Positions 2,526 through 48,076 of a DNA stretch of 50,088 bases are shown here, in pieces. Made by a program: the position numbers and the translations under genes. A model generated the notes under the pieces. The model worked only from the letters and a program-made list of their open reading frames with translations. It had not been told where the DNA came from and did no database searches. The stretch comes from a virus (taxonomy: Duplodnaviria > Caudoviricetes). The stretch is taken from positions 1 through 50,088 of IMG/VR virus record IMGVR_UViG_3300028809_000019; one strand, written 5' to 3'. The stretch's first letter is position 1, and each line of letters begins with the position of its first letter.

Positions 2526-2593
2526 GCTATACCGGCCATTGACCGTCCCGTCAATACCTTTCTTTCTATCAGTTCCGCCCGTATTGTTCGTCA
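2526..2593. promoter_or_regulatory. Bidirectional cassette 1: palindrome 2539-2554; leftward TTGACG-17-TATAGC; rightward -10 TATTGT 2582-2587 before leaderless ATG 2594
   Basis: Read directly from the sequence; conserved with three other copies. Confidence 0.8.
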
Positions 2594-2944
2594 ATGGCCG
2601 CAACCTTCCTTCTAGACCGTGACGCGTGGGACGTGGCGCTCGATGCGTCGGGCAATATTGCCGTTGCGACCGAACCATATAGTCAAGTCCAAGATGCGGC
2701 CAGCGCGGTCCGTGTCTTTGAGGGTGAGGCTTACTATAATACGACCCTCGGCGTCCCGTACTGGACGGACGTTCTGGGCCGCGCGCAACCTTCGCAAATC
2801 ATGCGGGCCCGAGCGCAGCAAGCCGCAATGACCGTCCCCGGCGTGATCGACGCAACCGCCGTACTGACCACGCTGCCGAACCGCACGCTCGGCGGGCAGA
2901 TCCAGATAAAGACCGCTACGGGCGAGATAGGGATTACCATATGA
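2594..2944 (+). CDS. Baseplate wedge / sheath initiator (gp25-like)
   Basis: WDVALDASGNIA and GEAYYNTTLGVPY motifs; precedes baseplate J. Confidence 0.8.
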   Translation: MAATFLLDRDAWDVALDASGNIAVATEPYSQVQDAASAVRVFEGEAYYNTTLGVPYWTDVLGRAQPSQIMRARAQQAAMTVPGVIDATAVLTTLPNRTLGGQIQIKTATGEIGITI

Positions 2945-4110
2945 CCGAAGTCCCGCCCCCGTCCTTCGGCCCGTTCGGCTTTACGTCACCGGAAGAACTA
3001 GCGATCCTCGCGGGCGTCATGGCCGACATGAATCAAGCGTTCGGCGGAAACCTGAACCCGTCGCTAAGCACGCCGCAGGGCCAATGGGCGACCAGCCTTG
3101 CCGCCGTCATCGGCGCGTCGAACGACCTGTTCGTCGACTTTACGAACCAAGTCGATCCGGCGTTCGCGAACGGTCGGATGCAGGACGCGATTGCGCGCAT
3201 CTATTACCTGACCCGCCGGGGCGCCACGCCGACGATCGTCACGGCCCGCTGTTCCGGTGCGACCGGCGTTAATCTCCCCAGCGGCTCCCTTGCGCGCGCG
3301 ACGGACGGCACGATCTACGCGTCGCTATCCGGCGGCTTGATCGAGTCGATCGGTTACGTCGATCTACAATTTGCCGCCCTCACCCCGGGACCGCTGGACC
3401 TACCGATCGGGGCGCTCTCCACGATCTATCGGACAGTCCCCGGATGGGACAGCGTGACCAATCTGACCGCCGGTACGCCGGGACGTGACGAAGAGAGTCG
3501 CGAGCAGATGGAGGAACGGCGGGCGCTGTCCGTCGCGTCCAATGCGGCCGGCATCCTTCCGGCGGTGCGCGGATCGGTCCTGTCGGTGCCGACCGTGCAG
3601 GACGCTTATGTGACCGAGAACGAGACCGGCACGGCGGCGACTATCGGCGGCGTGCTGATCGCGGCCCATAGTCTGTTCGTCTGCGTGCAGGGCGGGTCGG
3701 ACGCGGACGTTGCGCGAGCTATCTGGTTGAAAAAACCCCCCGGCTGCAATTACACCGGAACGACCAGTGTCGTCGTCGAAGATACGAATAGCGGCTATCT
3801 GACCCCGCCGACATATACCGTGAAGTTCGAGCGGGCCGCCGCCCTCGCCATCAATTTTGACGTGACGCTAGCGGCTGGTCCGGGCGTACCGGGCGACGCG
3901 GGGACTCTGGTCGAACAGGCCATTACGACACTCTTCCCGACGGTCGCGCGGATCGGCCAGTCCGTGTTCGCCTCGTCGTTCACTTGCGCCATTGCCGCGC
4001 TCGGACCGTGGGTGAAATTGCTGTCGATCGAGGTGAACGGCGCGGCCTTCCAGGCGGTCAATATCGACGAGATCCCCGCGCTCGGGACGATAACGGTTCT
4101 CGTCACATGA
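2941..4110 (+). CDS. Baseplate J-like protein
   Basis: GRMQDAIARIYYLTR and GRDEES motifs; size and synteny. Confidence 0.9.
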   Translation: MTEVPPPSFGPFGFTSPEELAILAGVMADMNQAFGGNLNPSLSTPQGQWATSLAAVIGASNDLFVDFTNQVDPAFANGRMQDAIARIYYLTRRGATPTIVTARCSGATGVNLPSGSLARATDGTIYASLSGGLIESIGYVDLQFAALTPGPLDLPIGALSTIYRTVPGWDSVTNLTAGTPGRDEESREQMEERRALSVASNAAGILPAVRGSVLSVPTVQDAYVTENETGTAATIGGVLIAAHSLFVCVQGGSDADVARAIWLKKPPGCNYTGTTSVVVEDTNSGYLTPPTYTVKFERAAALAINFDVTLAAGPGVPGDAGTLVEQAITTLFPTVARIGQSVFASSFTCAIAALGPWVKLLSIEVNGAAFQAVNIDEIPALGTITVLVT

Positions 4111-4736
4111 CGGCTATTTTTCCCGTCGCGGTCGTTCCGCTGGGTGCCGTCGAGGACGTCCTTAACGCGGATATCGACCGGACGTTCTTCGACGTCAACG
4201 AGACGGTCCTGTCGCAATATGCGAACAGCCCGGTCATGCTGGCGGTGATCGCCAGTTTCTCGGCATGGCTGGATCTCGGCAACCCATTCAACCGCTTCTA
4301 TAATCTGATCTGGAATATCGACACGGCGGTCGGTCACGGTCTGGACGTCTGGGGCCGCATCCTTGGCGTCGGACGGGTGCTGCAAGTTCCGTCGGGCGAA
4401 TATATTGGGTTCGAGCAGCAACCCGAAGCCCAAACGTTCGGTCACGGCATATTGTTTCGCGGCATCAATCTGACGAACAGTGCGTCCTTGACCGACGACG
4501 CGTATCGCATCTTGCTCATGGCGAAGGCGGCGCTTAATATCACGGATGCGTCGATCCCGGCGATCAATCAGATTTTGTTGACGCTGTTCGGCGACGGGTA
4601 TGTGCGGGACAATTTGGATATGACCATGACCTACGTCTTTTCGGCACCCCTCGATCCGGTTCAGACGTCTATCGTCTTTAATTCGGGCGTGTTGCCCCGT
4701 CCGTGCGGCGTGTCCGCCACCGTGGAGACTCCGTAA
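4107..4736 (+). CDS. Baseplate wedge protein (DUF2612-like)
   Basis: SQYANSP, IDTAVGHGLDVWGRILGVGR, LPRPCGV; ATGA coupling at 4107. Confidence 0.85.
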   Translation: MTAIFPVAVVPLGAVEDVLNADIDRTFFDVNETVLSQYANSPVMLAVIASFSAWLDLGNPFNRFYNLIWNIDTAVGHGLDVWGRILGVGRVLQVPSGEYIGFEQQPEAQTFGHGILFRGINLTNSASLTDDAYRILLMAKAALNITDASIPAINQILLTLFGDGYVRDNLDMTMTYVFSAPLDPVQTSIVFNSGVLPRPCGVSATVETP

Positions 4737-12451: not shown

Positions 12452-13603
12452 CTAGCGGCGTCCGAGAATTTTAGATGCGGTCGAGTCGTCAACCCGTAAG
12501 AGCTTCCGACTCGGTTCGTTCCGTCGGGTGTAGGGGGTAATGACCGACCCGTCAACACCCTGTTTGATGCACTGCGAAGGGGTCGGCAGAGCCACGCCGG
12601 GCTGCACGTCCACGCCGAACATGGCGACGATGCTGGCCGCTTCGGCCTGTCGGTCTTTTTCCCACGCCAAACGCGGTTGGGTCCAGCCGAGCGAATGGAA
12701 CGGAACGGCCTCGCCGCGTCCGAGCAACGCCAAGGCTTGCGCGTCCAGGGCGGACAGTCTGGCCTTAACGAAGTCCATCGCTTCGGCCAGTACCTTCGCC
12801 TCCACGCCGATCGACCGCGGGTCCATATGCGACGAGCCTTGTCCGCGAATGACGTCCAGTGCCGCCCCGCCCGCCCGTTGGTTCGCCGGGCAGTCCCATT
12901 GCGCCCGACAGTCCCGACAGTGCGGGCCGGTGCGGAGCATGGCGTGGGGCGCTCGTGCGGCGTGGGCGGCTATCCGCAGCGCGTCGATCAGCGGCGCAAG
13001 CTCGGCGCCCGATACGAACCATTCGCGCAGCGTACCGCCCAATTCGTCACGTTCGAAACAACGCGGCTGGGCGATCGTCAGCGTAAACGACCAATCCCGC
13101 CAGTCGTCTATTTTAGCGTCTTCAATGACGCACGCCGCATAGTCGATCAGCTGCCAGCAACGATAAGCGTCGACGAACCGATGGCCGTATTTGAAGTCCC
13201 AAATATGGACGGTCTTGCGGCTGAACTGCACGAAGTACGCGTCGGGCGTGCAGTCATTGTCGGGATGGATTATCTTGTGGCCGTGGACACGCTGTTCGAT
13301 CTGATAATAGTCGCCCGGCTTGCATCCTTTGAGCGTGTCGTTCACGTCTTCGACCAGTTCGACGATAGCTTCGCGCATCTCGTCATTGATCGGCACGCCG
13401 TTCGGGGCGACCGCATCGGCCGGCACCGTCAGTTTTAGCAGCGTCTGGGCGAGCAGCCAGTGCGCGGCGTCTCCCTCGCGGCTCTCCTCGGTCGGTTCCT
13501 GCTCGGGCTGGCGGGCTTCCATGGCGACCGACCCGGCGCAACCGTCCGGTCCCCAACGATCGGCGCCGGACGGGGGTAGGATGGCGTGCTGGTTGTCAGT
13601 CAT
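12452..13603 (-). CDS. DUF2800-like Cas4-type PD-(D/E)xK exonuclease
   Basis: HA.L.PS...RW..C, EG.AAH, TPD, WDFKYG, QL..YA, QPR, HCRDC...CP. Confidence 0.88.
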   Translation of the reverse strand: MTDNQHAILPPSGADRWGPDGCAGSVAMEARQPEQEPTEESREGDAAHWLLAQTLLKLTVPADAVAPNGVPINDEMREAIVELVEDVNDTLKGCKPGDYYQIEQRVHGHKIIHPDNDCTPDAYFVQFSRKTVHIWDFKYGHRFVDAYRCWQLIDYAACVIEDAKIDDWRDWSFTLTIAQPRCFERDELGGTLREWFVSGAELAPLIDALRIAAHAARAPHAMLRTGPHCRDCRAQWDCPANQRAGGAALDVIRGQGSSHMDPRSIGVEAKVLAEAMDFVKARLSALDAQALALLGRGEAVPFHSLGWTQPRLAWEKDRQAEAASIVAMFGVDVQPGVALPTPSQCIKQGVDGSVITPYTRRNEPSRKLLRVDDSTASKILGRR

Positions 13604-14561: not shown

Positions 14562-15236
14562 TTAACCGATCATCGAAAAGAACATGTCCCATTTGTCGGC
14601 ATGGTCTTTCAGATCCTTAAATGCGGCGACACCGACGACCCCGGCCATCTCGTTCAGTTCCGCATAGGTCTTGCCGTGCTTGGCGACCGCCGCGACGAAC
14701 GACGCGAAGTCGGGAAAGTTGCCGTCACCAGCGACCGGCGCACTTGCCGCAGGCGCGGGTTCCGAAGGCGTTTCCGCCGTGGGGGCAGGCGGCGCCGGAA
14801 CCTGCTCGTCTGCCGGCACCGTCGGGGCCAAAGGGACTTCTTCGTCCGCAGGGGGCGGCGGGGGCGCGGTGTCGGCCAGTTCGGCCATAACCTCGGCGAA
14901 CAGTTCGTCCGATACGCCACGCCGTTTACGCCACGTACCGTCGGCAACGGTCGCCTTGCTCTCGCTATGAATTCGGGCATCCCACGGGGTTCCCTTCGAG
15001 TCGACTTCGCCGCCCGAGCCGCCGGTAATTTCCGCCGTCTCTTCGTCGTCCTGTTCAGCCGCCACTTCGGCAACGGCTTGCGCGACGGCGGCGCGCGCTT
15101 CGTCCGCGTCGATCTTGACGACGATATTACCAACAGTCGTGTTGTTCGGCAGTCGGCCGCCGAGCGATGCGAGCAGCGCGATCAGTGCCGTCAGTTCGTC
15201 CGTGGACGACTCGGCCGTATTGAGCGTGATTTGCAT
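14562..15236 (-). CDS. Acidic Pro/Ala-rich protein heading the leftward replication operon
   Basis: D..G.PWD.RIH..SK....DGTWR.RRG core; first gene after the leftward promoter. Confidence 0.8.
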   Translation of the reverse strand: MQITLNTAESSTDELTALIALLASLGGRLPNNTTVGNIVVKIDADEARAAVAQAVAEVAAEQDDEETAEITGGSGGEVDSKGTPWDARIHSESKATVADGTWRKRRGVSDELFAEVMAELADTAPPPPPADEEVPLAPTVPADEQVPAPPAPTAETPSEPAPAASAPVAGDGNFPDFASFVAAVAKHGKTYAELNEMAGVVGVAAFKDLKDHADKWDMFFSMIG

Positions 15237-15260: not shown

Positions 15261-15301
15261 TTGACGACCTGCTACCTAACGGCTAGTGACGGGTTGGTCA
15301 A
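15261..15301. promoter_or_regulatory. Overlapping promoters for the divergent operons, with palindrome variant GTGAC-N6-GTCAA (15286-15301)
   Basis: Leftward TTGACC-17-TAGGTA; rightward TTGACG-17-TAGTGA. Confidence 0.7.
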
Positions 15302-15330
15302 TACCGTAAATTACCGACAGGGAGCAAGCC

Positions 15331-15684
15331 GTGCCGATTAAGAGAACCTTTAGACACGATTGGGCGCCCGGTTCCCGCCGTCGCGAGTATGACGGATATG
15401 CGATCAGCCCCGACAGCCCCTTTACGGTCTTCAAAGACCAGTCGGACGGGCGGTGGACGGTCGGTCACGAGCGGTCGGGGCTCGCTATCAATATGCTGAT
15501 CCCGCCGAAGCTCATGCGGTCAAAATTGCGGCTCCTTATGTGGCTGGAAGACATGGCGCGCGACATGCCGCTCGAGGTCGCCATGCTCGGTCTGGTCGAG
15601 TCGTCGGCCATGCTGTTCGGCGACGAGTTCCACGAATACGCGCAGTCATTGCTGGACTGGTCGGGGCGGTACGAGTGCATATGA
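15331..15684 (+). CDS. Hypothetical protein, 117 aa
   Basis: AGGGAG SD with GTG start; ATGA coupling to the next gene. Confidence 0.75.
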   Translation: MPIKRTFRHDWAPGSRRREYDGYAISPDSPFTVFKDQSDGRWTVGHERSGLAINMLIPPKLMRSKLRLLMWLEDMARDMPLEVAMLGLVESSAMLFGDEFHEYAQSLLDWSGRYECI

Positions 15685-16598: not shown

Positions 16599-18358
16599 TC
16601 CTGCGGCCATATCAGTCCGACATTACCAGCGAAGTCCGCCTATGGTGGGAACTCGGCCATAAAGTCGTCTGCGTCCAGCTGTCGACCGGCGGCGGCAAGA
16701 CTCCGATCCTGTCCGATCTGATCAACAATCACGGGGGGTTCGTTTGTGCCATTGCGCATCGTGATCGACTCGTAGAGCAGATTAGTTTGACGCTCGCCAA
16801 GGCCGGAATACGCCACGATCTAATCTGTTCGGACCGGTCGAAGAAGCTGATCGCCAAAAAGCACGTCCGCAAGCTCGGGCAATGCTTTTACGTGCCGGGC
16901 GCCCGCTGCCGGGTCGCATCGATCGACACGCTTGTCCGCGCCAAGGGGATCGACAAGTGGGCCGCGCAGGTCACGCTGTGGGTTGTCGACGAGGCGCACC
17001 ATCTGCTCCGCGCGAACAAATGGGGCCGCGGGCTCGAGCATTTTACCCATCCCCAATGCCACGGCCTGATGCTGACCGCCACGCCTGGACGGCCCGATCG
17101 GAAGGGACTCGGCAGGCACCGCAAGGGCTGCAACGGCGGGCCGTGCGAGGGGTGCGGCGATGGGCTGGCCGACGCGCTGGTTATCGGTCCGCCGATGCGC
17201 TGGCTGATCGACGAAGGGTATCTGTGCGACTATGACGTGGTTTGCCCGCCGACCGATCTTGTGGCGGCCGAAGCGCCGCGCGGGTCCGATGGCGACCTGA
17301 CGCGCGATCAGGTCCGCGAGGCCGAACGCGCCAGCCATATCGTCGGCGACATTCCGTCCCACTATCTCGAATGGGCGAAGGGTCTGTCGGGCGTTACGTT
17401 CGTCGGGTCGATCGAGACGGCAACCGACGTCGTGCGGTCGTTCAGAGAACGCGGCGTACCAGCGGAACTGATAACCGGCGATACTGACCCGACCGTTCGT
17501 GACCATATTTTCGAGAAGGCCGAAAGCGGCGAGATCCTGCAAATTGTGGCGGTCGACGTGATCAGCGAGGGCGTGGATATCCCAGCCCTGCAGGTCGGTT
17601 CGTTCGGGCGGTTGACCTGCTCGCATATCGTCTGGCTGCAGCAGTTGGGCCGCCTGCTCCGTCCGATCTATGCGCCGGGGTTCGATCTGGCGACTCGCAT
17701 GGGCCGACTGGCCGCTATCGCCGCGTCAAAGAAACCGAAGGCGCTGTTGATCGACCATATCGGCGGGTTCTGCAATCCATCGCTCGGACCGCCCGACAAG
17801 CCGCGGGTCTGGTCGCTCGAGCCGGGCGAGTCGCGCCAGGCGGCGGCCGATCCGGACGACATACCGAACCGCGTTTGCCTCAATCCCGACCCGCTACCGT
17901 CAGGCCGGCGGTGCTTCGCGCCTTATCCGCGCACGATGCGTAAATGTCCGAAATGCGGCTGGCACCCCGAACCGGCCAGTCGGGCCGCTCCTGAACATGT
18001 TGACGGCGATCTGCAACTGATGGACCCCGACGCGCTGGCAATCCTGCAGGGGCGGGTCATTCCGACGGATATGGACCGGACGACGCATGACGCGCAGCAA
18101 CTGGCCAAGGGCGCGCGGCCGGAATGGCTCGGGCGGCACTGGCGGAATTATGAGGCGACCAGTACGGCGCAATTGGCGCTGCGGGACGCGATGGACCGAT
18201 GGGCTGGCCGACTACACGCTGAGGGGCGGGCGGACTATGAGATTCAACGCGCATTCTATCTGGGGTACGGGGTGGACGTCGTGTCCGCGCAGTCGCTCGG
18301 GGCGGCGGACGCTACGGCCCTCAAATTGCGTATTGACGGTTCGGTCAATGGCCGCTAG
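16595..18358 (+). CDS. SF2 DNA helicase
   Basis: LRPYQ, STGGGKT, VVDEAHH, TATP, EGVDIP, QQLGR.LR; GGGAG SD before ATG 16595. Confidence 0.92.
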   Translation: MILRPYQSDITSEVRLWWELGHKVVCVQLSTGGGKTPILSDLINNHGGFVCAIAHRDRLVEQISLTLAKAGIRHDLICSDRSKKLIAKKHVRKLGQCFYVPGARCRVASIDTLVRAKGIDKWAAQVTLWVVDEAHHLLRANKWGRGLEHFTHPQCHGLMLTATPGRPDRKGLGRHRKGCNGGPCEGCGDGLADALVIGPPMRWLIDEGYLCDYDVVCPPTDLVAAEAPRGSDGDLTRDQVREAERASHIVGDIPSHYLEWAKGLSGVTFVGSIETATDVVRSFRERGVPAELITGDTDPTVRDHIFEKAESGEILQIVAVDVISEGVDIPALQVGSFGRLTCSHIVWLQQLGRLLRPIYAPGFDLATRMGRLAAIAASKKPKALLIDHIGGFCNPSLGPPDKPRVWSLEPGESRQAAADPDDIPNRVCLNPDPLPSGRRCFAPYPRTMRKCPKCGWHPEPASRAAPEHVDGDLQLMDPDALAILQGRVIPTDMDRTTHDAQQLAKGARPEWLGRHWRNYEATSTAQLALRDAMDRWAGRLHAEGRADYEIQRAFYLGYGVDVVSAQSLGAADATALKLRIDGSVNGR

Positions 18359-18361
18359 GGC
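18333..18361 (+). promoter_or_regulatory. Sigma70-type promoter TTGACG-17-TAGGGC containing the palindrome (18333-18348)
   Basis: TTGACGGTTCGGTCAAT; AGGGAGA SD and ATG 18387 downstream. Confidence 0.75.
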
Positions 18362-18386
18362 TGATCGTATTTAGGGAGACTTAAAG

Positions 18387-18609: not shown

Positions 18610-19245
18610 ATGACCAACAGAGCTTTTCATAACGACACGTCGCTGGCTGTAACTGTCCGTACGCAGGTAGCCGACCACACGGTAGCCGACGAGATTATCC
18701 AAGGGAAATATTGGGAGAAAGGCAAAGGCTGCTTTATCGGCTGTATTGCCCATGGTTCGGACCCGTCGATCGTCGAGCAACTGACGGGCTTTCCGCTTAT
18801 GCTGACGAAACTGGCGGAAGGTATTTTCGAAAGCCTGCCGAACGAAGTGGCCAAAGGTTTCCCGCAGCGAATTATCGAAGCGCCTCGCATCGGCGCGGAC
18901 TTGTCGCTCGTGTCGTGGAAATTTCTGCATTGGCTGATTGACGACGTTCTGACGGAACATGCGGACGACAAGACTCGCGCGGCCTGCTCGCCGGCTCTTG
19001 AAATCGTTGCGGCAAAATCACGTGGTGAAGAAGTTTCTTCCGATGCCGCCGCCCGCGCCGCCGATGCCGCCGATGCCGCCGCCTATGCCGCCGCCTATGC
19101 CGCCGATGCCGCCGCCCGTGCCGCCCGTGCCGCCCGTGCCGCCGCCCGCGCCGCCGATGCCGCCGCCCGTGCCGCCGATGCCGCCGATGCCGCCGCCCGA
19201 ATCCGGCAGGCTGATAAACTGGTCGAACTACTAGGTGCGGCGTGA
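18610..19245 (+). CDS. Hypothetical protein with Ala-rich AAx repeat tail
   Basis: AAGGAGA SD; GCFIGC motif; C-terminal AAR/AAD/AAY repeats. Confidence 0.85.
   Translation: MTNRAFHNDTSLAVTVRTQVADHTVADEIIQGKYWEKGKGCFIGCIAHGSDPSIVEQLTGFPLMLTKLAEGIFESLPNEVAKGFPQRIIEAPRIGADLSLVSWKFLHWLIDDVLTEHADDKTRAACSPALEIVAAKSRGEEVSSDAAARAADAADAAAYAAAYAADAAARAARAARAAARAADAAARAADAADAAARIRQADKLVELLGAA
19042..19200 (+). repeat. Degenerate 9-bp tandem repeat GCCGCC(CGY/GAT/TAT)
   Basis: Directly visible; encodes the Ala-rich tract. Confidence 0.9.
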
Positions 19246-19466
19246 TGAAAGCCGCCATCAAAGACGCGTATATCGCCAAGCTCCAACAGCATTATCCGAC
19301 GCTCTATCTGCCGGGGTCCCGTCCGCTCGATCTGGCCGTAATGGCCGCCGACCGGGCGCTGGCCGGCGCGCTCAAACTGGAAGGCGAATGTTGGTCGGCC
19401 GCCGTCGAGGACGTTACGGGCCTGACGCGCTGGACGATGGCCGACCTTGCGAGGTTGCCGGAATGA
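19242..19466 (+). CDS. Hypothetical protein, 74 aa
   Basis: Coupled at both ends. Confidence 0.7.
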   Translation: MMKAAIKDAYIAKLQQHYPTLYLPGSRPLDLAVMAADRALAGALKLEGECWSAAVEDVTGLTRWTMADLARLPE

Positions 19467-19834
19467 GTTGGGCGAGCGACATTCTGCAGGCGTTGGAAAA
19501 CGGCCCGATGACCAATGCGCAATTGCAGACGGCAACGGGCATACGGTCCGCCAACATATCGAGCATTTGCAATTATTTGATCCGTAACGGGCGGATCCGC
19601 CGAGTCGATAGCGAAAAACCCGGTCGGGGCTATCCCGCCACCTACGCCACAACGGGCAAGCCCCCGCCGATAAAGAGCCTTACTCGGCTTCGCGCAACGA
19701 ACGCCGGGCTGCTAGAGGCGACGAGCCGCGCGCTGAAAATTCTAGAACGTAATCTCCATCGGCAAACCGAGAAATGCGACGACGCGGTAACGATCCTTCG
19801 TAAGGCGCTCTCCGATTATGGGGACTTGACGTGA
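19463..19834 (+). CDS. Winged-HTH DNA-binding protein, 123 aa
   Basis: ILQALENGPMTNAQLQTATGIRSANISSICNYLIRNGRIRRV; ATGA coupling. Confidence 0.75.
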   Translation: MSWASDILQALENGPMTNAQLQTATGIRSANISSICNYLIRNGRIRRVDSEKPGRGYPATYATTGKPPPIKSLTRLRATNAGLLEATSRALKILERNLHRQTEKCDDAVTILRKALSDYGDLT

Positions 19835-20109
19835 CGAGGGGTATCGTCCGCCCGATGGACTCGGCGCCTCGCACCGACGGCACGCGTATTCTGGTCCGTG
19901 TCGCGCAACTCGGTTCGATCCTTTTTCAACGCGAGCCCCGACCGCACCCCAAATATGGTTGGTTTAAGCTGAACGGCTGGGCCTGGCAGGAATGCTGGTT
20001 CGACGGCACGCATTGGCAACCGTGGTCCGGCAATTACGCCACGAAGTCGACTGGCGCTTGGCCCGACGATTTTGACTATGTGTCCGGTTGGTCCGAGTTG
20101 CCCGCATGA
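19831..20109 (+). CDS. Hypothetical Trp-rich protein (P.DSAP..DGT.IL motif)
   Basis: Common phage early-gene motif; coupled. Confidence 0.7.
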   Translation: MTRGIVRPMDSAPRTDGTRILVRVAQLGSILFQREPRPHPKYGWFKLNGWAWQECWFDGTHWQPWSGNYATKSTGAWPDDFDYVSGWSELPA

Positions 20110-20522: not shown

Positions 20523-20749
20523 GTATTATCCAGAATATCGAAGAATTTACGGCCGCTCGCCAAGCCGTCGAAGCGCATTGCATGTGTGCGCGGATCGAAG
20601 ACGCGGCGGGGAAACTGATCGTCTATTATCCCGAAGGGGACTTCCGGACGGCGGGTCTGCGGATCGATCGAAATGCCGTTATGCTGCGGCGGGCTCTTGA
20701 AATTATGGAACGCGAATGGCTCGCTTCGTTTCCGGGTGCCGCGTCGTGA
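20519..20749 (+). CDS. Hypothetical protein, 76 aa
   Basis: Coupled at both ends. Confidence 0.7.
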   Translation: MSIIQNIEEFTAARQAVEAHCMCARIEDAAGKLIVYYPEGDFRTAGLRIDRNAVMLRRALEIMEREWLASFPGAAS

Positions 20750-22131: not shown

Positions 22132-22159
22132 GTCTGCGCGAACCAACGGAGGCCAGACC

Positions 22160-25476: not shown

Positions 25477-25489
25477 AGTAATTATGGGT

Positions 25490-27000: not shown

Positions 27001-27023
27001 TCGGGGCGAAGGGAGACTGACCG

Positions 27024-32529: not shown

Positions 32530-33298
32530 CCCCATCCGCCCGGCGGCCCCGACGCGCATCCAGTACCAGAAGCGAGTCGACGCGCTGATCGACGAGATGG
32601 CGGATAGCCTGATGTACTGGCTGAAGGCGGCCTATCGCGCCAACGAGCCCGCCACGGTCGACCTCGGCCATGACGCCCTGCCGTTGCAGAACGCTTTCGA
32701 CAAGCTGCGGCGCCGCTGGCTCCGTCGGTTCGATACGCTCTCCGAGCAACTTTCCGAATGGTTCGCAACGAGCGTCGAGAACCGTGTCGATCGGAATATG
32801 AAAGCGGACATGCGGAAAGCCGGGTTTACCGTCAAGTTCCAGCAGTCTCCGGCCATGCGGGAAGCCTTCGAAGCGGTGGTCGCCGAGAACGTCGCGCTTA
32901 TCAAGTCGATCGGCGCGCAGCATCTGGAAGGCGTGCAGGTCGCCCTGTCGCAGTCCGTCGCCACTGGTCGCGACCTCGCGTCACTGACCGAACATTTGAC
33001 CAAGCGCGTCGGCATCACCAAACGACGGGCCGCGCTCATTGCGCGCGATCAGACGAACAAGGCGACCGCGATGATGGTCCGTACGCGGGCGCTCGAGAAC
33101 GGCATAACCAAGGCGCGCTGGCAGCACTCGGCCGGCGGCAAGACCCCTCGTCCCGAACACGTTCGGGCCAGCCGCGATCGGCTCGTATTCAATCTCGCGG
33201 ACGGCGTGGACTTTGAGAACGGCGAAGGGACGGTCTGGCCGGGGACCGCGATTAACTGCAGGTGCGTGGCGATACCCGTAATTCCCGGCTTTGATTAG
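32513..33298 (+). CDS. Head morphogenesis protein (Mu F / SPP1 gp7-like)
   Basis: RA.LIARDQ, W.HS....PR..H, PG..INCRC. Confidence 0.92.
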   Translation: MPKTLNPIRPAAPTRIQYQKRVDALIDEMADSLMYWLKAAYRANEPATVDLGHDALPLQNAFDKLRRRWLRRFDTLSEQLSEWFATSVENRVDRNMKADMRKAGFTVKFQQSPAMREAFEAVVAENVALIKSIGAQHLEGVQVALSQSVATGRDLASLTEHLTKRVGITKRRAALIARDQTNKATAMMVRTRALENGITKARWQHSAGGKTPRPEHVRASRDRLVFNLADGVDFENGEGTVWPGTAINCRCVAIPVIPGFD

Positions 33299-33345
33299 CC
33301 GCCGCCTTGCCGTATTGTAGGCTTTCATAATTATTGGAGCCCCCA

Positions 33346-35769
33346 ATGGCCGACAGTTCCACCCTCATTGATCGAGTCAAGATTTTCGCGGAGTCGAGCG
33401 GTAGCGGTCCGTTCGTGCTGGGCAATGCGGTTCCGGCATTCCGGGGGGCGGAAGTTCTTACCGACGGTCTGACCTACAGCTACGCCGTCGAGAACGGGGC
33501 CGACTACGAGGCGGGCCAGTGCGTCTATGTCGCCGGAGCGAACCAGCTTCTCCGCACCCCGTCCATTTCCAGTGCGGGCGGTGCGCCCGTTCCCTTCCCG
33601 GCGAACGTGGCGATCATATTTACCGCCCTTGCCGCCGATCTGACTTCTTCGCTCGAGGGGACCGGCACGGTCCGCAGTGTCTCCGCGGATGGGGGGACGA
33701 CAGGTCTTGGCTTTACTGGAAGCCCGATCCAAGTCGAAGGGACGCTGGTTCTCGGCGGCGTGCTGAACGTTACGAATGGCGGCACGGGCGGGTCGACTGG
33801 GGCGGAAGCGCGAGCGGGTCTCGGGCTCGGCAATGTCGATAATACGAGCGACGCGAATAAACCGGTCAGCACCGCCACGCAGGTCGCTTTGGACACTAAA
33901 GTCGCTACGGCCGATCTAGCGGCGGCGGGCGGCAGTAGTCTTGTCGGCTATCAGCGCGCGGGCGCCGGAACGATTCTTTCGTCGGCAGCTAATCAATTTT
34001 CGCAACGTCTGTCCATTGACGATTTCGTCGGTGCCGACCGTACCGGGACGACGAGCAGTACCGCCGCAGCCGCCGCAGCCGCCGCCGTTTTGACCGATCA
34101 ACTTGGCGGACTTTCGCATTTTCAGGCAGGCACATATTTGTGCGCGATAACGATCGGCAACTCGCAGAATTGGCGGGGCGAAGGACCGACGTCCGAAATT
34201 AGTATCCCAGCGCCGTCCACGATCAAAAAAAATACGAATGGCGCAACCGTGACGATCGATGGCTACGCGGCCAGTCTATCCGAAATCGGGATAGACGGAA
34301 ATTCTGCGAACTTTTCCGGTGTTGGTGTCCATATCAAAAAAGCGCGTTTTCGGGCTTCGGGCGTTTCGATTAACGACACGGAGAGTCATGCCTTCCATCT
34401 TGATCCTGGCGCCGGGATCAATGGCAACGCGTGGCGGCTGAGTTCGATTTATTCCAACAGCGTCCTCGGCAGCGGTATGTATATCGACCATACCGGCAAC
34501 ACCCCGACGGGTTCATTTCCGTTCGGGCCGCCCGATATCAATGCGGGCTTCTCCGATCACGCCGTTATACTAAGTTCGACCGAGTACGGCGTCTATGGCG
34601 GAAACTCCATTGACAATGTCTTCATGGCTCCGGTCATCCAGAGCTGCGGGCGAGAGGGGATTTTCCTCGACGTTGGCGCGCAAGGGTATAAGATTTTCGC
34701 ACCATATCTGGAGGCCAATGGTTCTGATGCCTCTGGAAATGAACTGATCATCAAAGCCGGATCGACCCAGCATATTGTTATAGGAAACCGATATTGCCTG
34801 CCGGGGGCGGGCAGTAAATATCTTGATGAGAACGCGCCGGGCAAGAATTATATCGTCACCTATGAGGACGGAATTGGCCGTTTTGCTCATTGGGGCGAAA
34901 TTTCTGTTCTGAATCCTGATTTTACTGCCACCGGAGAAGTTCATTACCGTGCTTTTCTCGGCGCCAACGCCGACAACGTGTTCAACATGGTTGGAACGAT
35001 TCCGGCAGGTAATGGCGGTGCATGGGGCGTCGAAACAAAGCGCCTTGGTGATACGGCCATACGGCGGCTTTCGATCGATCACCTCGGTAATGGCTACGTG
35101 CAAAACGCCACCGCATGGACTTTCGGCAAGGCCGCAGCAGATACGACAACGCCGGGGCTTACGGTTTATGCCAATGGATCGCCGCGACTTGATTTTGTCG
35201 GGTCCGGCAGCGACCCGACGACCCTCACCGCGCACTACAACGCGAACGGCTTCGTTGGCGGCATTAGCATGTCGGGATCGGCGACGACTTACGGCACTTC
35301 GTCTGACCGACGGTTGAAAAAGAAGATCCAGCCGCTAGAGGGCGGTCTGGAACTGGTCGTCAAACTTCGTCCAGTTACCTTCGAATTTCGCAAAGATAAG
35401 TCCGGTGATCGCCACCAGGGTTTTATTGCAGATGAAGTTCAGAAGTTGCTACCTCTGGCGGTGATCGGCGATCCTGATGGCGAAATACAGCTTGGTCGGA
35501 TTGTCTTCAACGACACGAACGGCAGCGGTGAGGCGATCGAAGCCGCAGGCACGATCGTTATGGAGGATGTCCCGGAGCCTGTGCGACTGCCGGATGATAC
35601 GCACTTTGAGCCGACCAGAATGGGCAAGTGGTATCAAAGTCTCGACTTGGCGAAGATCGTGCCTGCGCTGACGGGCGCAGTTCAGGAACTCGCACGACGC
35701 GACGAGGCGAAAGACGTGGTGATTGCGGAGCTTATGCGCCGCCTGTCCGCTCTGGAAAAACGAGGATAG
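33346..35769 (+). CDS. Spike/fibre with beta-helix-like body and C-terminal Peptidase_S74 chaperone
   Basis: GLGNVDNTSD..KPVS repeat; pectate-lyase-like G.G...I segment; TSSDRRLK...GFIADEV; terminal coiled coil. Confidence 0.85.
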   Translation: MADSSTLIDRVKIFAESSGSGPFVLGNAVPAFRGAEVLTDGLTYSYAVENGADYEAGQCVYVAGANQLLRTPSISSAGGAPVPFPANVAIIFTALAADLTSSLEGTGTVRSVSADGGTTGLGFTGSPIQVEGTLVLGGVLNVTNGGTGGSTGAEARAGLGLGNVDNTSDANKPVSTATQVALDTKVATADLAAAGGSSLVGYQRAGAGTILSSAANQFSQRLSIDDFVGADRTGTTSSTAAAAAAAAVLTDQLGGLSHFQAGTYLCAITIGNSQNWRGEGPTSEISIPAPSTIKKNTNGATVTIDGYAASLSEIGIDGNSANFSGVGVHIKKARFRASGVSINDTESHAFHLDPGAGINGNAWRLSSIYSNSVLGSGMYIDHTGNTPTGSFPFGPPDINAGFSDHAVILSSTEYGVYGGNSIDNVFMAPVIQSCGREGIFLDVGAQGYKIFAPYLEANGSDASGNELIIKAGSTQHIVIGNRYCLPGAGSKYLDENAPGKNYIVTYEDGIGRFAHWGEISVLNPDFTATGEVHYRAFLGANADNVFNMVGTIPAGNGGAWGVETKRLGDTAIRRLSIDHLGNGYVQNATAWTFGKAAADTTTPGLTVYANGSPRLDFVGSGSDPTTLTAHYNANGFVGGISMSGSATTYGTSSDRRLKKKIQPLEGGLELVVKLRPVTFEFRKDKSGDRHQGFIADEVQKLLPLAVIGDPDGEIQLGRIVFNDTNGSGEAIEAAGTIVMEDVPEPVRLPDDTHFEPTRMGKWYQSLDLAKIVPALTGAVQELARRDEAKDVVIAELMRRLSALEKRG

Positions 35770-40337: not shown

Positions 40338-40719
40338 TTTGCGAGCTCGCGCGAACGTACTGACCAGCCGGATCAATCCGAACCTGTCGATCGGCTATCG
40401 CCGCTATGCGGGTCGCACGGTCAATCCCGACGGCACGCAGGTCGCCGAGTATGACCCGCAGACGTCCGTCGTCGCGCAGGTCCAGTCGCTCGGCAAAAAA
40501 GAGGCCGTCCATCTGTCGTCGCTGCGCATCTCAAATTGCGAGCGCATGGTCTATGTGAACTTCCAGCTTCAGGCGACCGACCGAGTCGAACAGACCGGCG
40601 GCGATCTGGTCGTGTTCGAAGGTGCGGTCTGGCAGGTTGAAGCGATTTTGGAAGGCTGGTCGACCGCGGGCTGGTCGCGCGGCGCAGTCAGTAAGCAGAT
40701 GGACGCTCCGACAGGATGA
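40330..40719 (+). CDS. Head closure / head-tail joining protein
   Basis: INPN, AQVQ.L, GGD.V.F...W.V..ILE.W; synteny. Confidence 0.78.
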   Translation: MVNLRARANVLTSRINPNLSIGYRRYAGRTVNPDGTQVAEYDPQTSVVAQVQSLGKKEAVHLSSLRISNCERMVYVNFQLQATDRVEQTGGDLVVFEGAVWQVEAILEGWSTAGWSRGAVSKQMDAPTG

Positions 40720-41089
40720 CGGCTAGTGCGTGCGCTTGGTTGATGGGGGTTTTCGCAAAACGATCCGTTAGACGACGACCCGCTGAATCCGCTCGTAAAA
40801 TTGATAGCATTTCGGGATTTTCGCGAAACCACCGTTGCCAAAGCCCCAAATAGGCTAGCCATAAATCCTCTTTCGATATGGAAACGACGGGCGGTTTGCC
40901 CTTCCCGACTCTCCACGAAGTGCCTCCGGTCTGTCGGTATCCTTTGACGTCGAGTTGATAGGCTTCTTCAATGGTGCGACCATCGGATAGTCGGGCGAAA
41001 AGCGCGGAAAATCGCCGGTCGCCACGGCTCGATACTTCGTATCCGTCGGCGGCATAGCGCGCCCAACCCCCGCCAGCCGTCGCGGTCAT
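40688..41089 (-). CDS. Moron protein, possibly NADAR-like
   Basis: YEVSSRGDRRFSALFA...TIEEAYQLDVKGY...GKGK; AAGGA SD. Confidence 0.75.
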   Translation of the reverse strand: MTATAGGGWARYAADGYEVSSRGDRRFSALFARLSDGRTIEEAYQLDVKGYRQTGGTSWRVGKGKPPVVSISKEDLWLAYLGLWQRWFRENPEMLSILRADSAGRRLTDRFAKTPINQAHALAVILSERPSAY

Positions 41090-41235
41090 CTTGTTTCCTT
41101 CCGTCGGCGAGCAGCCCGCGCCGACCGCTGGCGCTCCCGGTCCGCCTCGTGACGGACAATATGATTGGTTGCGAGCGATAGCGTATTGCTCGAATAGCGA
41201 CAGCCGGGGACGGTGCAGCGGTATTTATCGAACAT
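41086..41235 (-). CDS. 49-aa C2H2 zinc-finger protein with basic tail (not in ORF track)
   Basis: MFDKYRCTVPGCRYSSNTLSLATNHIVRHEADRERQRSARAARRRKETR*; ATGA coupling to the next gene. Confidence 0.75.
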   Translation of the reverse strand: MFDKYRCTVPGCRYSSNTLSLATNHIVRHEADRERQRSARAARRRKETR

Positions 41236-41239
41236 CAGA

Positions 41240-41674
41240 TCACCACGTCCGGTGCGTTTCGGCGACCCATTCCAGCCCGTCGTAATTTTCGATTTGCCAC
41301 GATACGCCGGAGGGGATCGAGGTTACGTCGAGTTTCGCAAACTCCCCGTTCGCTTCGTCACCGAGTTCCTCGATAGCCGCGATCAAAGCCAGATCATCTC
41401 GGTCGATATCGCATGGCGTCAGGCTGGCAGCATCCCACGCCGCGTTTGATGCTTGACGTTCTTCCAGCGACATTTCGTGGAAATTATCCTGATCCGGCGG
41501 GCGTTGCTCGACAGGAACGAGCCAATACGTCCAGAACCCATATGGTTTTCCGTCATGTTCGGGATAGAGCGTGATGCCTTTGTGGCGCGCGTAGGCAAGC
41601 ACGCCTGCATGGCTTAGGCCGAACCCCCCGTGGCAGCGGTTAACGACGATTTTTTGAATACCTGTTTCGGACAC
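41240..41674 (-). CDS. Conserved phage hypothetical protein, first gene of the moron
   Basis: KIV.N.C.GGFGLS...R.D..L...IEELG..ANG...YDG.E; AAGGAGA SD with GTG. Confidence 0.85.
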   Translation of the reverse strand: MSETGIQKIVVNRCHGGFGLSHAGVLAYARHKGITLYPEHDGKPYGFWTYWLVPVEQRPPDQDNFHEMSLEERQASNAAWDAASLTPCDIDRDDLALIAAIEELGDEANGEFAKLDVTSIPSGVSWQIENYDGLEWVAETHRTW

Positions 41675-41696
41675 GGTTCAATCTCCTTGAGCGGCC

Positions 41697-41764
41697 ACCT
41701 TACGCATATTGACCGTCCCGTCAATACCTATTTTTCCCCCGCGTCCTGTCGTATGCTCCCCGCC
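41697..41764. promoter_or_regulatory. Bidirectional cassette 2: palindrome 41709-41724; leftward TTGACG-16-TAAGGT; rightward TATGCT 41752-41757 before leaderless ATG 41765
   Basis: 41708-41740 is identical to 47094-47126 (33 bp). Confidence 0.8.
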
Positions 41765-42295
41765 ATGGCCGCAACCGTAGACTTAACCGAACAAGCCGTC
41801 TTTACCGGCCTGCGCGCGTTCGTCCTCGACGTGCTGACGGTCGGGCCGACCAACGTCATCAAGGGCCAAGCGAACCGCGTGCCGATGCCCGCCGGTCCGA
41901 ACTTCGTAATCCTGACGCCGACGGGCCGCGCGCAACTTGCCACGACCAAACGCACCTACCTACCGTCAGCCCAGCCCGCCCCGGCACCCGGCCAGCGCGA
42001 CACGCAGCGGCAAACCCGGCTGGACGTGCAGTTCGATGTGTACGGCCCGGCAGCGGCCGAGAACGTCCAGATTATCTCCACGCTGCTCCGCGACATGTAC
42101 GGCTGCGACTTCCTGCGACCCCATCAGGTCCAGCCGCTCTATTGTGGCGACCCCAAGCAATTGCCGCTCGTCACGGGCGAATTGCAATATCTGGCGCGGT
42201 GGATGCTCGGGGCGACTTTGCAATTCAATCCTACGGTATCGACAAGCCAGCAGTTTGCCGATATTGTGGACGTCACCCTAGTAGAGGCGGATTAA
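41765..42295 (+). CDS. Tail terminator / neck protein
   Basis: GQ.NRVP.P, Q.DVYG, PLY...P.Q, Q.NP; precedes the sheath. Confidence 0.82.
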   Translation: MAATVDLTEQAVFTGLRAFVLDVLTVGPTNVIKGQANRVPMPAGPNFVILTPTGRAQLATTKRTYLPSAQPAPAPGQRDTQRQTRLDVQFDVYGPAAAENVQIISTLLRDMYGCDFLRPHQVQPLYCGDPKQLPLVTGELQYLARWMLGATLQFNPTVSTSQQFADIVDVTLVEAD

Positions 42296-44250: not shown

Positions 44251-44291
44251 AAAGAAAACCCCCGGTAGCTTACGAGCCGCCGGGGGTTTTT
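44251..44291. terminator. Bidirectional intrinsic terminator
   Basis: AAAACCCCCGGTAGCT-TACG-AGCCGCCGGGGGTTTT, with A/T runs on both sides. Confidence 0.85.
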
Positions 44292-44380
44292 CGTTCGTAG
44301 GGGGCGAACGGTTTTACTTATATCCGCGCATTTTGGCCTCCTGGGTTAGAGAATCAAAACAAGCACTACACTTCTAACCC
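44252..44380 (-). ncRNA. Candidate ~125-nt structured sRNA / minigene transcript (MRGYK, 44314-44331)
   Basis: Own promoter and terminator; three hairpins; AGGAGG-5nt-ATG CGC GGA TAT AAG TAA. Confidence 0.6.
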
Positions 44381-44384
44381 CGCC

Positions 44385-44446
44385 AGATTGCCCGCATCTG
44401 ACCGCCCCGTCAATACCTTTCTTTCCTCCCGCGCGAGCCTTATTGT
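44385..44446. promoter_or_regulatory. Bidirectional cassette 3: palindrome variant 44398-44413; leftward TTGACG-17-CAATCT; rightward TATTGT 44441-44446
   Basis: 27-nt match with one mismatch to cassette 1; same 27-nt spacing to the rightward -10. Confidence 0.75.
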
Positions 44447-44486
44447 CGGCCCCGGCCCCTCACGGGGGCTAATCAGGGAGTGACCA

Positions 44487-44996
44487 ATGGCACGCAAAGT
44501 AAAGATGATCCGCATACCGGCAGACCCGCCGAGTCGGGACGCGGGCAAGACCTTCCAGCTGACCGAAATGTCCGCCGCGCAGTCCGAAAAATGGGCCCTT
44601 CGCGCGCTCGGGGCTATCGCGAACAGCGGCATGGAAATTCCCGAAGACGTGATGCGCCTCGGTATGGGCGCCCTCGTGGCGGTCGGCTTCAAAGGTCTGC
44701 TGACCATGCAGTTCGACGAGGCCGAGCCGCTGCTGGACGAAATGATGGATTGCATCGTGATCGTGCCGGACCCGAAGAACCCCGGCGTCGTCCGGCCCGT
44801 CGATGACGAGGATATTGAGGACGTGACGACCCGCCTGACTTTGCGTTCGGAGGTGTTCGAATTGCACACGGGTTTTTCGCCGGCCGGCTTCCTCTCGAAA
44901 TTAGGGACGTCGGCGAAACAGACCCCGGTTACGTCGGATTTGCCAACGTCCCCCAAACCATCGGCAACGCCGTCGCCAGCGGACGGGCAACCCTGA
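44487..44996 (+). CDS. Tail assembly chaperone (G-like)
   Basis: RD.GK.F..TEMSA.Q.E.WA, PLLDEM..C, DIE.V.T...LR; between tube and tape measure. Confidence 0.85.
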   Translation: MARKVKMIRIPADPPSRDAGKTFQLTEMSAAQSEKWALRALGAIANSGMEIPEDVMRLGMGALVAVGFKGLLTMQFDEAEPLLDEMMDCIVIVPDPKNPGVVRPVDDEDIEDVTTRLTLRSEVFELHTGFSPAGFLSKLGTSAKQTPVTSDLPTSPKPSATPSPADGQP

Positions 44997-46888: not shown

Positions 46889-47059
46889 TCAGGCGATCGA
46901 GATCAAGAGGTCGGCAACCTCCGACACGTCCATCGAAATCAGATAGCCCTCGATTTCGGCGGGATTGCTGGCGGCGTATTTAGCCGCCTTCGCCGCGCCG
47001 TGCATTCCGAGAGCTTTCATTTCAGTCAGTTCGGTGATTACGTCGTTAATGTCGGCCAT
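46889..47059 (-). CDS. 56-aa acidic helical moron protein
   Basis: AAGGAGA SD before ATG 47059; directly after the cassette 4 promoter. Confidence 0.75.
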   Translation of the reverse strand: MADINDVITELTEMKALGMHGAAKAAKYAASNPAEIEGYLISMDVSEVADLLISIA

Positions 47060-47081
47060 GTCGTGTCTCCTTGTTGACCCC

Positions 47082-47149
47082 CGTTTACCTACCATTGACC
47101 GTCCCGTCAATACCTATTTTTCCCCCCGCCCATGTGGCATTGTCGGACC
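47082..47149. promoter_or_regulatory. Bidirectional cassette 4: palindrome 47095-47110; leftward TTGACG-17-TAAACG; rightward CATTGT 47138-47143 before leaderless ATG 47150
   Basis: 33-bp identity with cassette 2. Confidence 0.8.
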
Positions 47150-48076
47150 ATGAGCGCGCTTTACCCTAATGTGCCGGACGTCCCCGGCGTCCCGGTCGTC
47201 AATCGCGCGACCACGGCCATATCAACAGCGATCGACGGTGCCGCGCAATCACGCAGCGCCTCGCAGGTCGGTCTGGACCTGATCGAAGCGGGCGACTTCC
47301 CGACTGCGGCCCTGTCGTTCATAGCGGGCGGCAACCTTGCGCAAGCGGCCCTCGTGCTGGTCGATCCCGTATTTGCCAGCGGCTCGTTACCGTCCGGGGC
47401 GCTCAACTCGGCGGCGGGCATGGCGCAAGGTGCGGCCAACGCTCTTACATCCGGCGACATTGCGGGCGCGGTCAACGCGGGCCTTCAGTCGATCAGCTAT
47501 GCGACCGAAGCGATCCTGTCGATGCGGGACGTCCTCAACCCGCCGGGCGTGCCGATACTGGCCGACAGCGGTCCCGAGGTTCAAGCCGATATCGCCCAGC
47601 AATGGGGGCTTTACGATCAGAGCGGATTGCCTGCCGTTCTCGCCGATAACGTCCAATCGCTGGAAGTCACGCTCGAGGCGCAAATTAGCGACTTCCCCGT
47701 CGAGAACGGCGGGTTCGCCTCGTATAATAAAGTGATCCGCCCTTTCGACGTGCGAGTCGCCATGACGAAAGGCGGATCGGTAGAGGATCGCCAGGCGTTC
47801 GTGCAGCAAGTGCAGGACGCGTGGCAATCGCTCGAGCTGTTTAATGTGGTCACGCCTGAGGTCGTTTATCTGGACGTCAACGTCGTGGGCGTGCGGCGAC
47901 TGGTCGAGTCGGACCGCGGTGTCGGGTTAATGATGCTCGACGTATCTTTACGCAAGGTCCGTCAGACCGGGCGTCTGGCATTTACCAGCACGGCGCAACC
48001 GGCGAGCGCGGGCGTCAACAATAACGGCGCGGTCCAGACGCAAACAGACTTCCGGTATGAAGGGACCGTCAGCTAA
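47150..48076 (+). CDS. Baseplate / tube-initiator (Dit-like) protein
   Basis: P.VP.VPGVP, QWG.Y, SDFPVE.G.FASYNKV..P. Confidence 0.82.
   Translation: MSALYPNVPDVPGVPVVNRATTAISTAIDGAAQSRSASQVGLDLIEAGDFPTAALSFIAGGNLAQAALVLVDPVFASGSLPSGALNSAAGMAQGAANALTSGDIAGAVNAGLQSISYATEAILSMRDVLNPPGVPILADSGPEVQADIAQQWGLYDQSGLPAVLADNVQSLEVTLEAQISDFPVENGGFASYNKVIRPFDVRVAMTKGGSVEDRQAFVQQVQDAWQSLELFNVVTPEVVYLDVNVVGVRRLVESDRGVGLMMLDVSLRKVRQTGRLAFTSTAQPASAGVNNNGAVQTQTDFRYEGTVS

Follow-up and report, generated by a model that had tools for sequence, protein, structure and literature searches.

A recurrent palindrome at the promoters of a contractile-tailed phage and a proposed bidirectional cassette among its tail genes

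Introduction

How can a phage hold leftward genes inside a rightward cluster of tail genes and still have those tail genes transcribed? The question is raised by IMG/VR record IMGVR_UViG_3300028809_000019, analysed here in full (the window: 50,088 bp, about 61% G+C, with a terminal overlap of 133 nt), which family searches identify as a tailed phage with a contractile-tail gene cluster. In this genome a palindrome, TTGAC-N6-GTCAA, overlays the -35 element and spacer of every readable sigma70-like promoter. In the tail cluster, and within the window only there, it also stands at a fixed distance from a rightward -10 box that has no -35 element. Below we describe this arrangement, its conservation in related genomes and the switch for which it may serve.

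The palindrome and its sites

The window holds seven exact copies of TTGAC-N6-GTCAA (2539, 18333, 22106, 25897, 26972, 41709 and 47095); 100 dinucleotide-preserving shuffles gave 0.03 on average. When one mismatch is allowed there are 11, against 0.92 expected; the additional sites are 15286 (left arm GTGAC), 44398 (left arm CTGAC), and 6983 and 12540, both of which fall within genes. The initial annotation had listed eight sites, always at an operon start. Six of them are exact, 15286 and 44398 have one mismatch each, and the exact copy at 22106 had been overlooked. The description of their position was too strong, since 18333 and 22106 fall within the 3' ends of preceding genes on the same strand and 25897 overlaps the start codon of a terS-like gene.

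The extended consensus is (A)TTGACSG-NN-CSGTCAAT, with a 16-bp core. Among orthologous single-copy sites the arms never differ whereas the central bases do, as would be expected where a dimer binds; the half-site centers are 11 bp apart, a spacing that would suit a dimer on one face of the DNA. As RNA, the palindrome forms 6–7 pairs (-4.7 to -6.1 kcal/mol) with no adjoining U-run. A role as intrinsic terminator was ruled out, since the hairpin is weak and is not among the terminator-like sites called.

Anatomy of the tail-cluster cassettes

The tail cluster spans the ends of the record, reaching an endolysin gene, and contains the four members of a 54-nt repeat family:

2519–2596: cassette 1, before the baseplate genes; leftward -10 TATAGC at 2526–2531, palindrome 2539–2554, T-block 2555–2566, rightward -10 TATTGT at 2582–2587, predicted leaderless ATG at 2594
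41690–41767: cassette 2, before the neck-terminator, sheath and tube genes; palindrome 41709–41724, T-block 41725–41736, rightward -10 TATGCT at 41752–41757, ATG at 41765
44379–44489: cassette 3, before the tail chaperone and tape-measure genes; palindrome 44398–44413 with a degenerate left arm (CTGAC), rightward -10 TATTGT at 44441–44446, 40-nt leader with a hairpin and a GGGAG Shine-Dalgarno sequence, ATG at 44487; no open reading frame (ORF) to the left, and a terminator-like hairpin upstream (44291–44311)
47075–47152: cassette 4, before the Dit-like and baseplate-hub genes; palindrome 47095–47110, rightward -10 CATTGT at 47138–47143 with TGG just before it, predicted leaderless ATG at 47150

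An exact 27-nt distance from palindrome to rightward -10, claimed at the outset, was found in all four copies, leading to TATTGT, TATGCT, TATTGT and CATTGT; hexamers of this class have a frequency of 0.0029 per window position. The pyrimidine tract reported in place of a -35 is present, yet it is more specific than that term suggests: it is a conserved block, TACCTWTYTTT (the T-block), which in the window occurs in the four cassettes only, on the plus strand every time. Mean pairwise identity among the copies is 0.94 in the palindrome, 0.89 in the T-block, 0.42 in the next 15 nt, 0.75 in the -10 box and 0.35–0.39 in the flanks, a profile that suits a bipartite promoter better than a simple repeat. 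If the -10 box is placed at -12 to -7, the palindrome is centered at -47.5 and the T-block runs from -39 to -28 relative to the rightward start, and the -35 position reads TTTCTT or TATTTT. Three copies (start codons at 2594, 41765 and 47150) have the ATG 6–7 nt past the -10 with no Shine-Dalgarno sequence, which implies leaderless mRNAs. The left arm, TTGACC, was considered as a rightward -35 and ruled out, since it lies 37 nt from the -10; the hexamers 14–18 nt downstream of it are T-rich and lack -10 character.

Read leftward, the right arm is TTGACG, and 16–17 nt further on stand TATAGC (2539), TAAGGT (41709), TAAACG (47095) and the weaker CAATCT (44398). A leftward promoter for an antisense accessory gene (moron) had been proposed at all four copies. 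A leftward ORF is indeed found at three of them; at 44398, no minus-strand ORF of at least 20 aa starts to the left. The leftward leader GGRTCAACAAGGAGAC is likewise common to the cassette copies.

Conservation of layout and spacing in relatives

Relatives were gathered by a pattern scan and by protein-based scans. The window is labelled G000 and the relatives are as follows:

G001: 49,045 bp, sheath 85% identical
G002: 31,760 bp
G003: 36,613 bp, sheath 61% identical
G004: 18,385 bp
G005:C20: 50,526-bp contig in a 6.3-Mb metagenome-assembled genome
G006–G008: small fragments

The cassette layout is shared by five relatives (genomes or contigs) and by one fragment. Exact palindromes number 7, 9, 5, 8, 2 and 8 in G000–G005, against at most 0.025 expected from mononucleotide shuffles, and the 24 outgroup loci (sheath identity 41–47%) have none outside coding sequence. 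Among 50,697 phage records, megablast with 16 kb of the window gave no match, and a search of phage records with the sheath protein found relatives only at 46% identity or less. A metagenome scan with the Dit-like protein yielded no further member of the palindrome clade covering the junction.

The spacing was scanned as a palindrome (at most one mismatch) followed by TACC, which gave 26 sites in seven records. Four early control regions (G000 15286, G001 42338, G002 820 and G005 27915) were left out of the test, having no -10 at that offset. The distance seen in the window is conserved, contrary to the outcome that the initial annotation had named as refuting: all 17 close-clade cassettes with a rightward gene have a -10 of the form [TC]A[TC][TG][GC]T at offset 27, and in the four distant cassettes, of which three are in G003 and one is in G007, the -10 lies at offset 28, with the palindrome centered at -48.5. 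The ATG follows the -10 by 6–7 nt in 13 of the 17 close cassettes, the other four having 26–33-nt leaders with a Shine-Dalgarno sequence, and by 5–7 nt in all four distant ones (17/21 overall). The distant cassettes all have TGn before the -10, and their block after the palindrome reads TACCCTAYCG...; among the close ones TGn is found in 4/17 (three TGG, one TTG) and a -35 in 0/17. An 18th close cassette, G005 20475, is flanked on either side by leftward genes and shows TATGCC at offset 26.

The reading of the right arm as a leftward sigma70-like -35 was borne out in the relatives, where a TAnnnn -10 lies 16–17 nt from TTGACG wherever a leftward gene exists. G001 10861 and G003 29332 lack both a leftward gene and a leftward -10, and their palindrome is nonetheless perfect and at the usual 27- or 28-nt distance. 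These sites, like 44398 in the window, argue that the palindrome belongs to the rightward promoter too.

The chaperone junction has features of its own. At G001 21567, G005 6890 and G002 31209 (equivalent to about 44441–44460 in the window), an imperfect palindrome, TTGTC-N6-GTCAA, lies over the -10 and start site of the chaperone promoter; this second site is present in these three relatives and absent from the window. In G002, no cassette precedes the chaperone promoter, and this promoter has a true -35 (TTGACC-18-TATTGT).

Leftward islands and apparent cassette mobility

The leftward genes bordered by the window's cassettes are these:

372–2503, minus strand: accessory island 1, four ORFs including a C5 DNA methyltransferase (733–2043)
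40688–41674, minus strand: accessory island 2, three ORFs of 144, 49 and 133 aa, with no ortholog in the relatives
46889–47059, minus strand: accessory ORF of 56 aa, with no ortholog in the relatives

Such leftward genes have no ortholog in the relatives or are 37–75% identical, compared with 72–94% for the flanking tail genes, and a Pfam scan of nine of them found no family save the C5 methyltransferase. Across six genomes, the palindrome (at most one mismatch) is found at 21 of 27 divergent junctions, 20 of 206 plus-plus, 3 of 67 minus-minus and 2 of 27 convergent ones. These counts rest on gene calls from an ad hoc codon-usage script, for which reason small ORFs are uncertain, and several of the six divergent misses are doubtful small ORFs.

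Where the tail genes run uninterrupted there is no cassette, as at the neck and chaperone junctions of G003 and G008 and the chaperone junction of G007 and G002. Tail junctions with leftward insertions carry the cassette, with exceptions both ways: G001 10861, G003 29332 and window 44398 have a cassette and no leftward gene, and G005 20475 has no rightward gene. In this last case (reverse-complemented coordinates), a full cassette with its T-block has a 78-aa leftward ORF on one side and, on the other, the 3' end of the DNA polymerase gene, which also runs leftward. Since it is intact with nothing rightward after it, the unit appears to travel whole, in keeping with the initial annotation, which had described it as portable. 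Its copies are also chimeric: the copy at the Dit position of G001 has the right half found in G004 at the baseplate position, and G001 contains two pairs of identical left flanks. The swapped halves and identical flanks together indicate exchange between cassette copies.

Several observations bear on these junctions. The rightward face of G005 20475 would run antisense into the polymerase gene. In the window, the short gap at 33298–33346, before a variable 807-aa fiber-like gene, keeps a TATTGT and has no palindrome or T-block; at the equivalent junction G001 has a full cassette (10861). The 49-aa ORF of island 2 (41086–41235, minus strand) shows a zinc-finger-like pattern, C-x4-C ... H-x3-H, with no Pfam match. 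The window encodes two DNA methyltransferases, the C5 cytosine enzyme of island 1 (733–2043, minus strand) and an N6/N4 enzyme in the early operon (20716–22131, plus strand), both of which may protect against restriction.

Other promoters bearing the palindrome

Outside the tail cluster, the palindrome accompanies the following sites:

15261–15310: early divergent control region; rightward TTGACG-17-TAGTGA, its -10 overlapping the left arm of the imperfect palindrome 15286–15301; leftward TTGACC (right arm)-17-TAGGTA, so that the two divergent promoters overlap
18333–18362, plus strand: internal sigma70-like promoter, TTGACG-17-TAGGGC, with the palindrome over the -35 and spacer
22106–22135, plus strand: sigma70-like promoter, TTGACC-17-TAAGTC, directly before the candidate regulator gene
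25897–25912, plus strand: palindrome on the start codon of the terS-like gene (25906–26331)
26972–27001, plus strand: sigma70-like promoter, TTGACG-17-TAGCTG, before small genes, the large terminase and the head genes

At 18333, 22106 and 26972 the second arm lies inside the 17-nt spacer, and a leader with a Shine-Dalgarno sequence follows the -10. The early control region is kept at the three relatives' sites left out of the spacing test. Sites orthologous to 18333 are G001 44922, G002 4333 and G005 30941, those orthologous to 26972 are G001 3520, G002 10978, G005 41639 and G003 6085, and the layout at 25897 recurs at G002 10550. G003 also has leftward-only promoters, at 17125 and 17755, without the TACC block. 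For the first genes on either side of the early control region (14562–15236 and 15331–15684), no family or PDB sequence match was found.

One of the palindromes within genes, the one-mismatch copy at 12540–12555 (ATGACCGACCCGTCAA) in the exonuclease gene, is kept at G001 39997, G004 16813 and G005 25049. This may reflect mere constraint on the coding sequence.

The candidate regulator

Which protein might bind the palindrome? One gene product stands out:

22160–22507, plus strand: candidate palindrome-binding regulator, 115 aa, with a TetR-like N-terminal helix-turn-helix

It is the only DNA-binding candidate kept in all five genomes that cover its region, at 86 (G001), 93 (G002), 70 (G005) and 44% (G003) identity. 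In every genome covering it, and in fragment L062 as well, a palindrome promoter stands immediately upstream of its gene. Across 17 sequences, the helix-turn-helix residues do not vary. In a viral contig collection the protein was found in the palindrome clade only, at four loci, and tblastn against the 50,697 phage records gave no match.

Several comparisons suggest the TetR family. A precomputed match to Pfam TetR_N (PF00440) exists for 4 of 17 homologs. An alignment profile run against PDB sequences had a best expectation value (E) of 0.0048, with matches nearly all to TetR proteins. The AlphaFold model (mean predicted local distance difference test score, pLDDT, 82) has three helices after the helix-turn-helix region, and the matches listed by Foldseek are nearly all of the TetR family, though weak (TM-score to the query 0.30–0.49, none at E 0.001). 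A language-model search agrees. By its co-occurrence with the palindrome, the 115-aa protein is the best candidate for the binder. Among other proteins considered, the MarR-like product of 19463–19834 was ruled out, being absent from G001, G002, G003 and G005, and the conserved 138-aa protein of 20106–20522 gave a mere lead to the VRR-NUC nuclease family.

Gene map and other features of the window

Pfam and PHROGs were each scanned with 38 window proteins. Family searches outline the following blocks:

Replication block, leftward: DNA polymerase, Gp2.5-like single-strand binding protein, exonuclease
Early block, rightward: helicase, N6/N4 methylase, primase
Packaging and head genes, in order: terS-like gene, large terminase, portal, protease, major capsid
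Contractile-tail cluster: neck terminator, sheath, tube, chaperone, tape measure, Dit-like, baseplate W and J

No integrase, lysogeny module or phage RNA polymerase was found among the window genes scanned, which are a subset of the ORFs.

Between the primase/helicase gene and the terS-like gene is a non-coding, AT-rich gap (25418–25870). Seven exact and two one-mismatch copies of TTATCCAC, which resembles a DnaA box, lie at 25498–25744, and two exact copies are found elsewhere in the 50 kb. The gap is probably a replication origin that recruits host DnaA. The equivalent gap in G003 has another iteron, TACCCTCA/TGAGGGTA. Elsewhere, the ORF at 18610–19245 (211 aa, no family match, no ortholog in the relatives) contains a GCCGCC(GAT/CGT/TAT) repeat at 19015–19212, with a period of 9 or 12 nt and 13 registers.

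A proposed switch and its alternatives

How might the palindrome work? We propose that a dimeric DNA-binding protein, most likely encoded by the phage, occupies the 16-bp palindrome as its operator. Where the operator lies over the -35 and spacer of a sigma70-like promoter (centered at about -28.5), the bound protein would hinder RNA polymerase; such promoters are those of the early control region, the internal promoters, the terminase and head promoter, and the leftward promoters of the accessory genes. In the tail cluster, the operator would form the core of a bidirectional cassette of about 100 bp. Its right arm, TTGACG, would provide the -35 element of a complete leftward promoter serving hypervariable accessory genes. 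In the rightward direction, the operator at -47.5, a T-rich block that is not a -35 element, 15 free bases, a TATTGT-type -10 and, usually, a leaderless ATG would make up a promoter that restarts tail-gene transcription past each leftward island. With the operator empty, transcription would run leftward; with it occupied, the leftward promoter would be shut and polymerase aided onto the -35-less rightward one.

The anatomy of the cassette, its conservation and fixed spacing, its link to divergent junctions and its co-occurrence with the regulator gene can be read directly from these genomes. From them we infer the identity of the binder, the timing and the activation. That the palindrome is the operator of the 115-aa protein, which would block the sigma70-like promoters and aid the -35-less rightward ones, is in our estimate evenly poised between right and wrong. 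A wider proposal is put forward more tentatively: the cassette may be a self-contained mobile switch by which fast-evolving accessory genes, possibly for host takeover or anti-defense, can sit antisense at any junction of the tail operon, with one TetR-like protein flipping all copies from accessory on and tail off to accessory off and tail on, and with leaderless tail mRNAs as part of the design.

A number of points weigh against the proposed switch. Promoters, start sites and timing are all predicted from sequence alone. The cassette copies within a genome are near-identical and are not independent observations, and the T-block kept at G005 20475 suggests that recent duplication and hitch-hiking may account for some of the conservation. 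The operator at 26972 covers the -35 of the terminase and head promoter itself, and a protein that represses sigma70-type promoters and activates late ones would therefore silence the head genes. As to the protein, TetR-family members are typically about 180–220 aa long in total, with a large C-terminal domain, and are nearly always repressors. The large C-terminal domain for ligand binding and dimerization is lacking at 115 aa (the matched PDB chains have 173–213 aa), and the score of the protein against TetR_N, 21.7 bits (E 1.8e-4), is below the 24-bit cut-off. Nor is the cassette center a canonical activator position, class II activators being centered at -41.5; at -47.5 or -48.5, it is also 4–5 bp off the -43.5 of Mu Mor. 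Finally, the distant cassettes have TGn, and an extended -10 of this type can work without an activator (PMC4390567).

Could the protein be a repressor only? It would then repress or auto-limit the sigma70-like promoters, as Aca regulators and dispersed phage operators do; the tail promoters would fire alone, through an extended -10 or another reader of the T-block, and their palindrome would simply be inherited with the cassette unit. We consider this somewhat unlikely, although several observations suit it. At nine sites in the window the operator covers a -35 and spacer, where a repressor would sit, the candidate has a TetR-like fold, and -47.5 is a non-canonical place for an activator. The extended -10 of all four distant cassettes, the retention of the whole unit at G005 20475 with no rightward gene, and the true -35 of the G002 chaperone promoter, which has no cassette upstream, point the same way. 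On the other hand, repression alone does not account for the perfect palindromes that G001 10861 and G003 29332 keep at exactly 27 and 28 nt in the absence of a leftward gene or -10. It also leaves 13 of the 17 close cassettes without TGn, and all 17 without a -35, and it does not explain why the 21 copies show no indel though the intervening sequence varies freely.

A host transcription factor might bind the palindrome instead, tying the phage promoters to the state of the host. The half-site is the -35 consensus and is thus already read by the host machinery, and binding by a phage protein is itself only inferred. We nevertheless regard a host factor as improbable, because the palindrome stands ahead of a conserved phage helix-turn-helix gene in each of the five genomes that cover this gene. 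The 6.3-Mb assembly, with 22 exact palindromes of which eight are on the phage contig, also speaks against it, but weakly, since the binning may be wrong. It is more improbable still that the palindromes are not regulatory at all and act as recombination boundaries or weak terminator hairpins mediating accessory-gene exchange. Cassette halves have been swapped between junctions (G001 and G004), identical left flanks occur in pairs in G001, the leftward genes differ while the flanking tail genes are 72–94% identical, and the palindrome RNA does fold, at -4.7 to -6.1 kcal/mol. Recombination, however, leaves unexplained the -10 boxes at fixed offset, the leaderless ATGs and the conserved arms and free center at single-copy early sites, and the hairpin is weak, has no adjoining U-run and was not called terminator-like. 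Exchange between copies is in any case compatible with the operator switch proposed above rather than exclusive of it.

Relation to known systems

An operator scattered over many promoters and intergenic regions and read by one repressor is familiar from the stoperators of mycobacteriophage L5, the conserved inverted repeats of phiC31 and the C1 sites of P1. Those belong to temperate phages and act in lysogeny. The present palindrome is similarly scattered genome-wide; unlike them, it is coupled at a fixed distance to -35-less promoters, in a phage with no lysogeny module among the genes scanned.

The initial annotation knew of no described equivalent of the cassette. This was wrong, since phi29 p4, Mu Mor/C and the PeSL mobile regulatory cassettes of T4-type phages are all precedents; the first two share the logic of an operator that stands in for a -35 and at the same time closes an early promoter. 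The p4 dimer of Bacillus phage phi29 binds inverted repeats over the -35s of early promoters (A2b/A2c) and, from that site, activates the divergent late promoter A3, which has a poor -35 (PMC3100819). The cassette likewise has its site over a leftward -35 and upstream of a divergent, -35-poor promoter, a likeness of sequence geometry alone. Whereas phi29 has a single control region, the unit here is repeated four to six times per genome within the tail cluster. The phi29 switch also involves a CTTTTT-15 bp-AAAATG site, a requirement for p6 and a novel p4 fold, as opposed to the 5-N6-5 palindrome and TetR-like candidate read from these genomes. Scans of 38 window proteins with Pfam and of 38 with PHROGs gave no match to p4 or its partner p6.

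In Mu, Mor binds a 16-bp element that contains two 5-bp inverted repeats, lies at -43.5 and takes the place of the -35 (PMC4390567), and several late promoters have the site in common (PMC4390567; PMC4461284). The rightward promoters of the cassette resemble these Mor/C promoters in having a 16-bp element with two 5-bp inverted repeats, a -10 and no -35. They differ in their center, -47.5 or -48.5, and the Mu site is not known to serve also as the -35 of a divergent promoter. The Mor/C family had no match among the 38 window proteins scanned with Pfam.

The T4-type PeSLs are small repeated cassettes with strong sigma70-like promoters that flank non-essential ORFans, which recombination shuffles (PMC2839356). 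Here too there is a sigma70-like promoter, the flanked genes are variable and, as the chimeric cassettes indicate, the copies exchange among themselves. Unlike a PeSL, which joins a promoter to an effective terminator stem-loop, works one way and is found in hyperplastic early regions, the cassette has a weak hairpin, faces two ways, lies in the tail cluster and has a second face of late type.

Literature searches on the motif, on leaderless late promoters with inverted repeats, on bidirectional moron promoters in tail genes and on phage TetR-type late regulators turned up no description of this arrangement. What appears to be new is the combination, with its mechanism as a proposal: a bidirectional unit with one operator, in four to six copies within the tail cluster, bracketing hypervariable antisense islands and giving predicted leaderless late mRNAs.

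Why would such an arrangement matter? If the proposal is true, a lytic phage would hold hypervariable accessory genes in an essential late operon without polarity, by means of a copyable one-operator unit. The cassette would offer synthetic biology a portable, two-way switch of natural origin, about 100 bp long, and it would provide a rule for finding accessory and anti-defense islands in the genomes of uncultivated phages. It would also add a set of -35-less, leaderless late promoters from an unstudied, high-GC host system.

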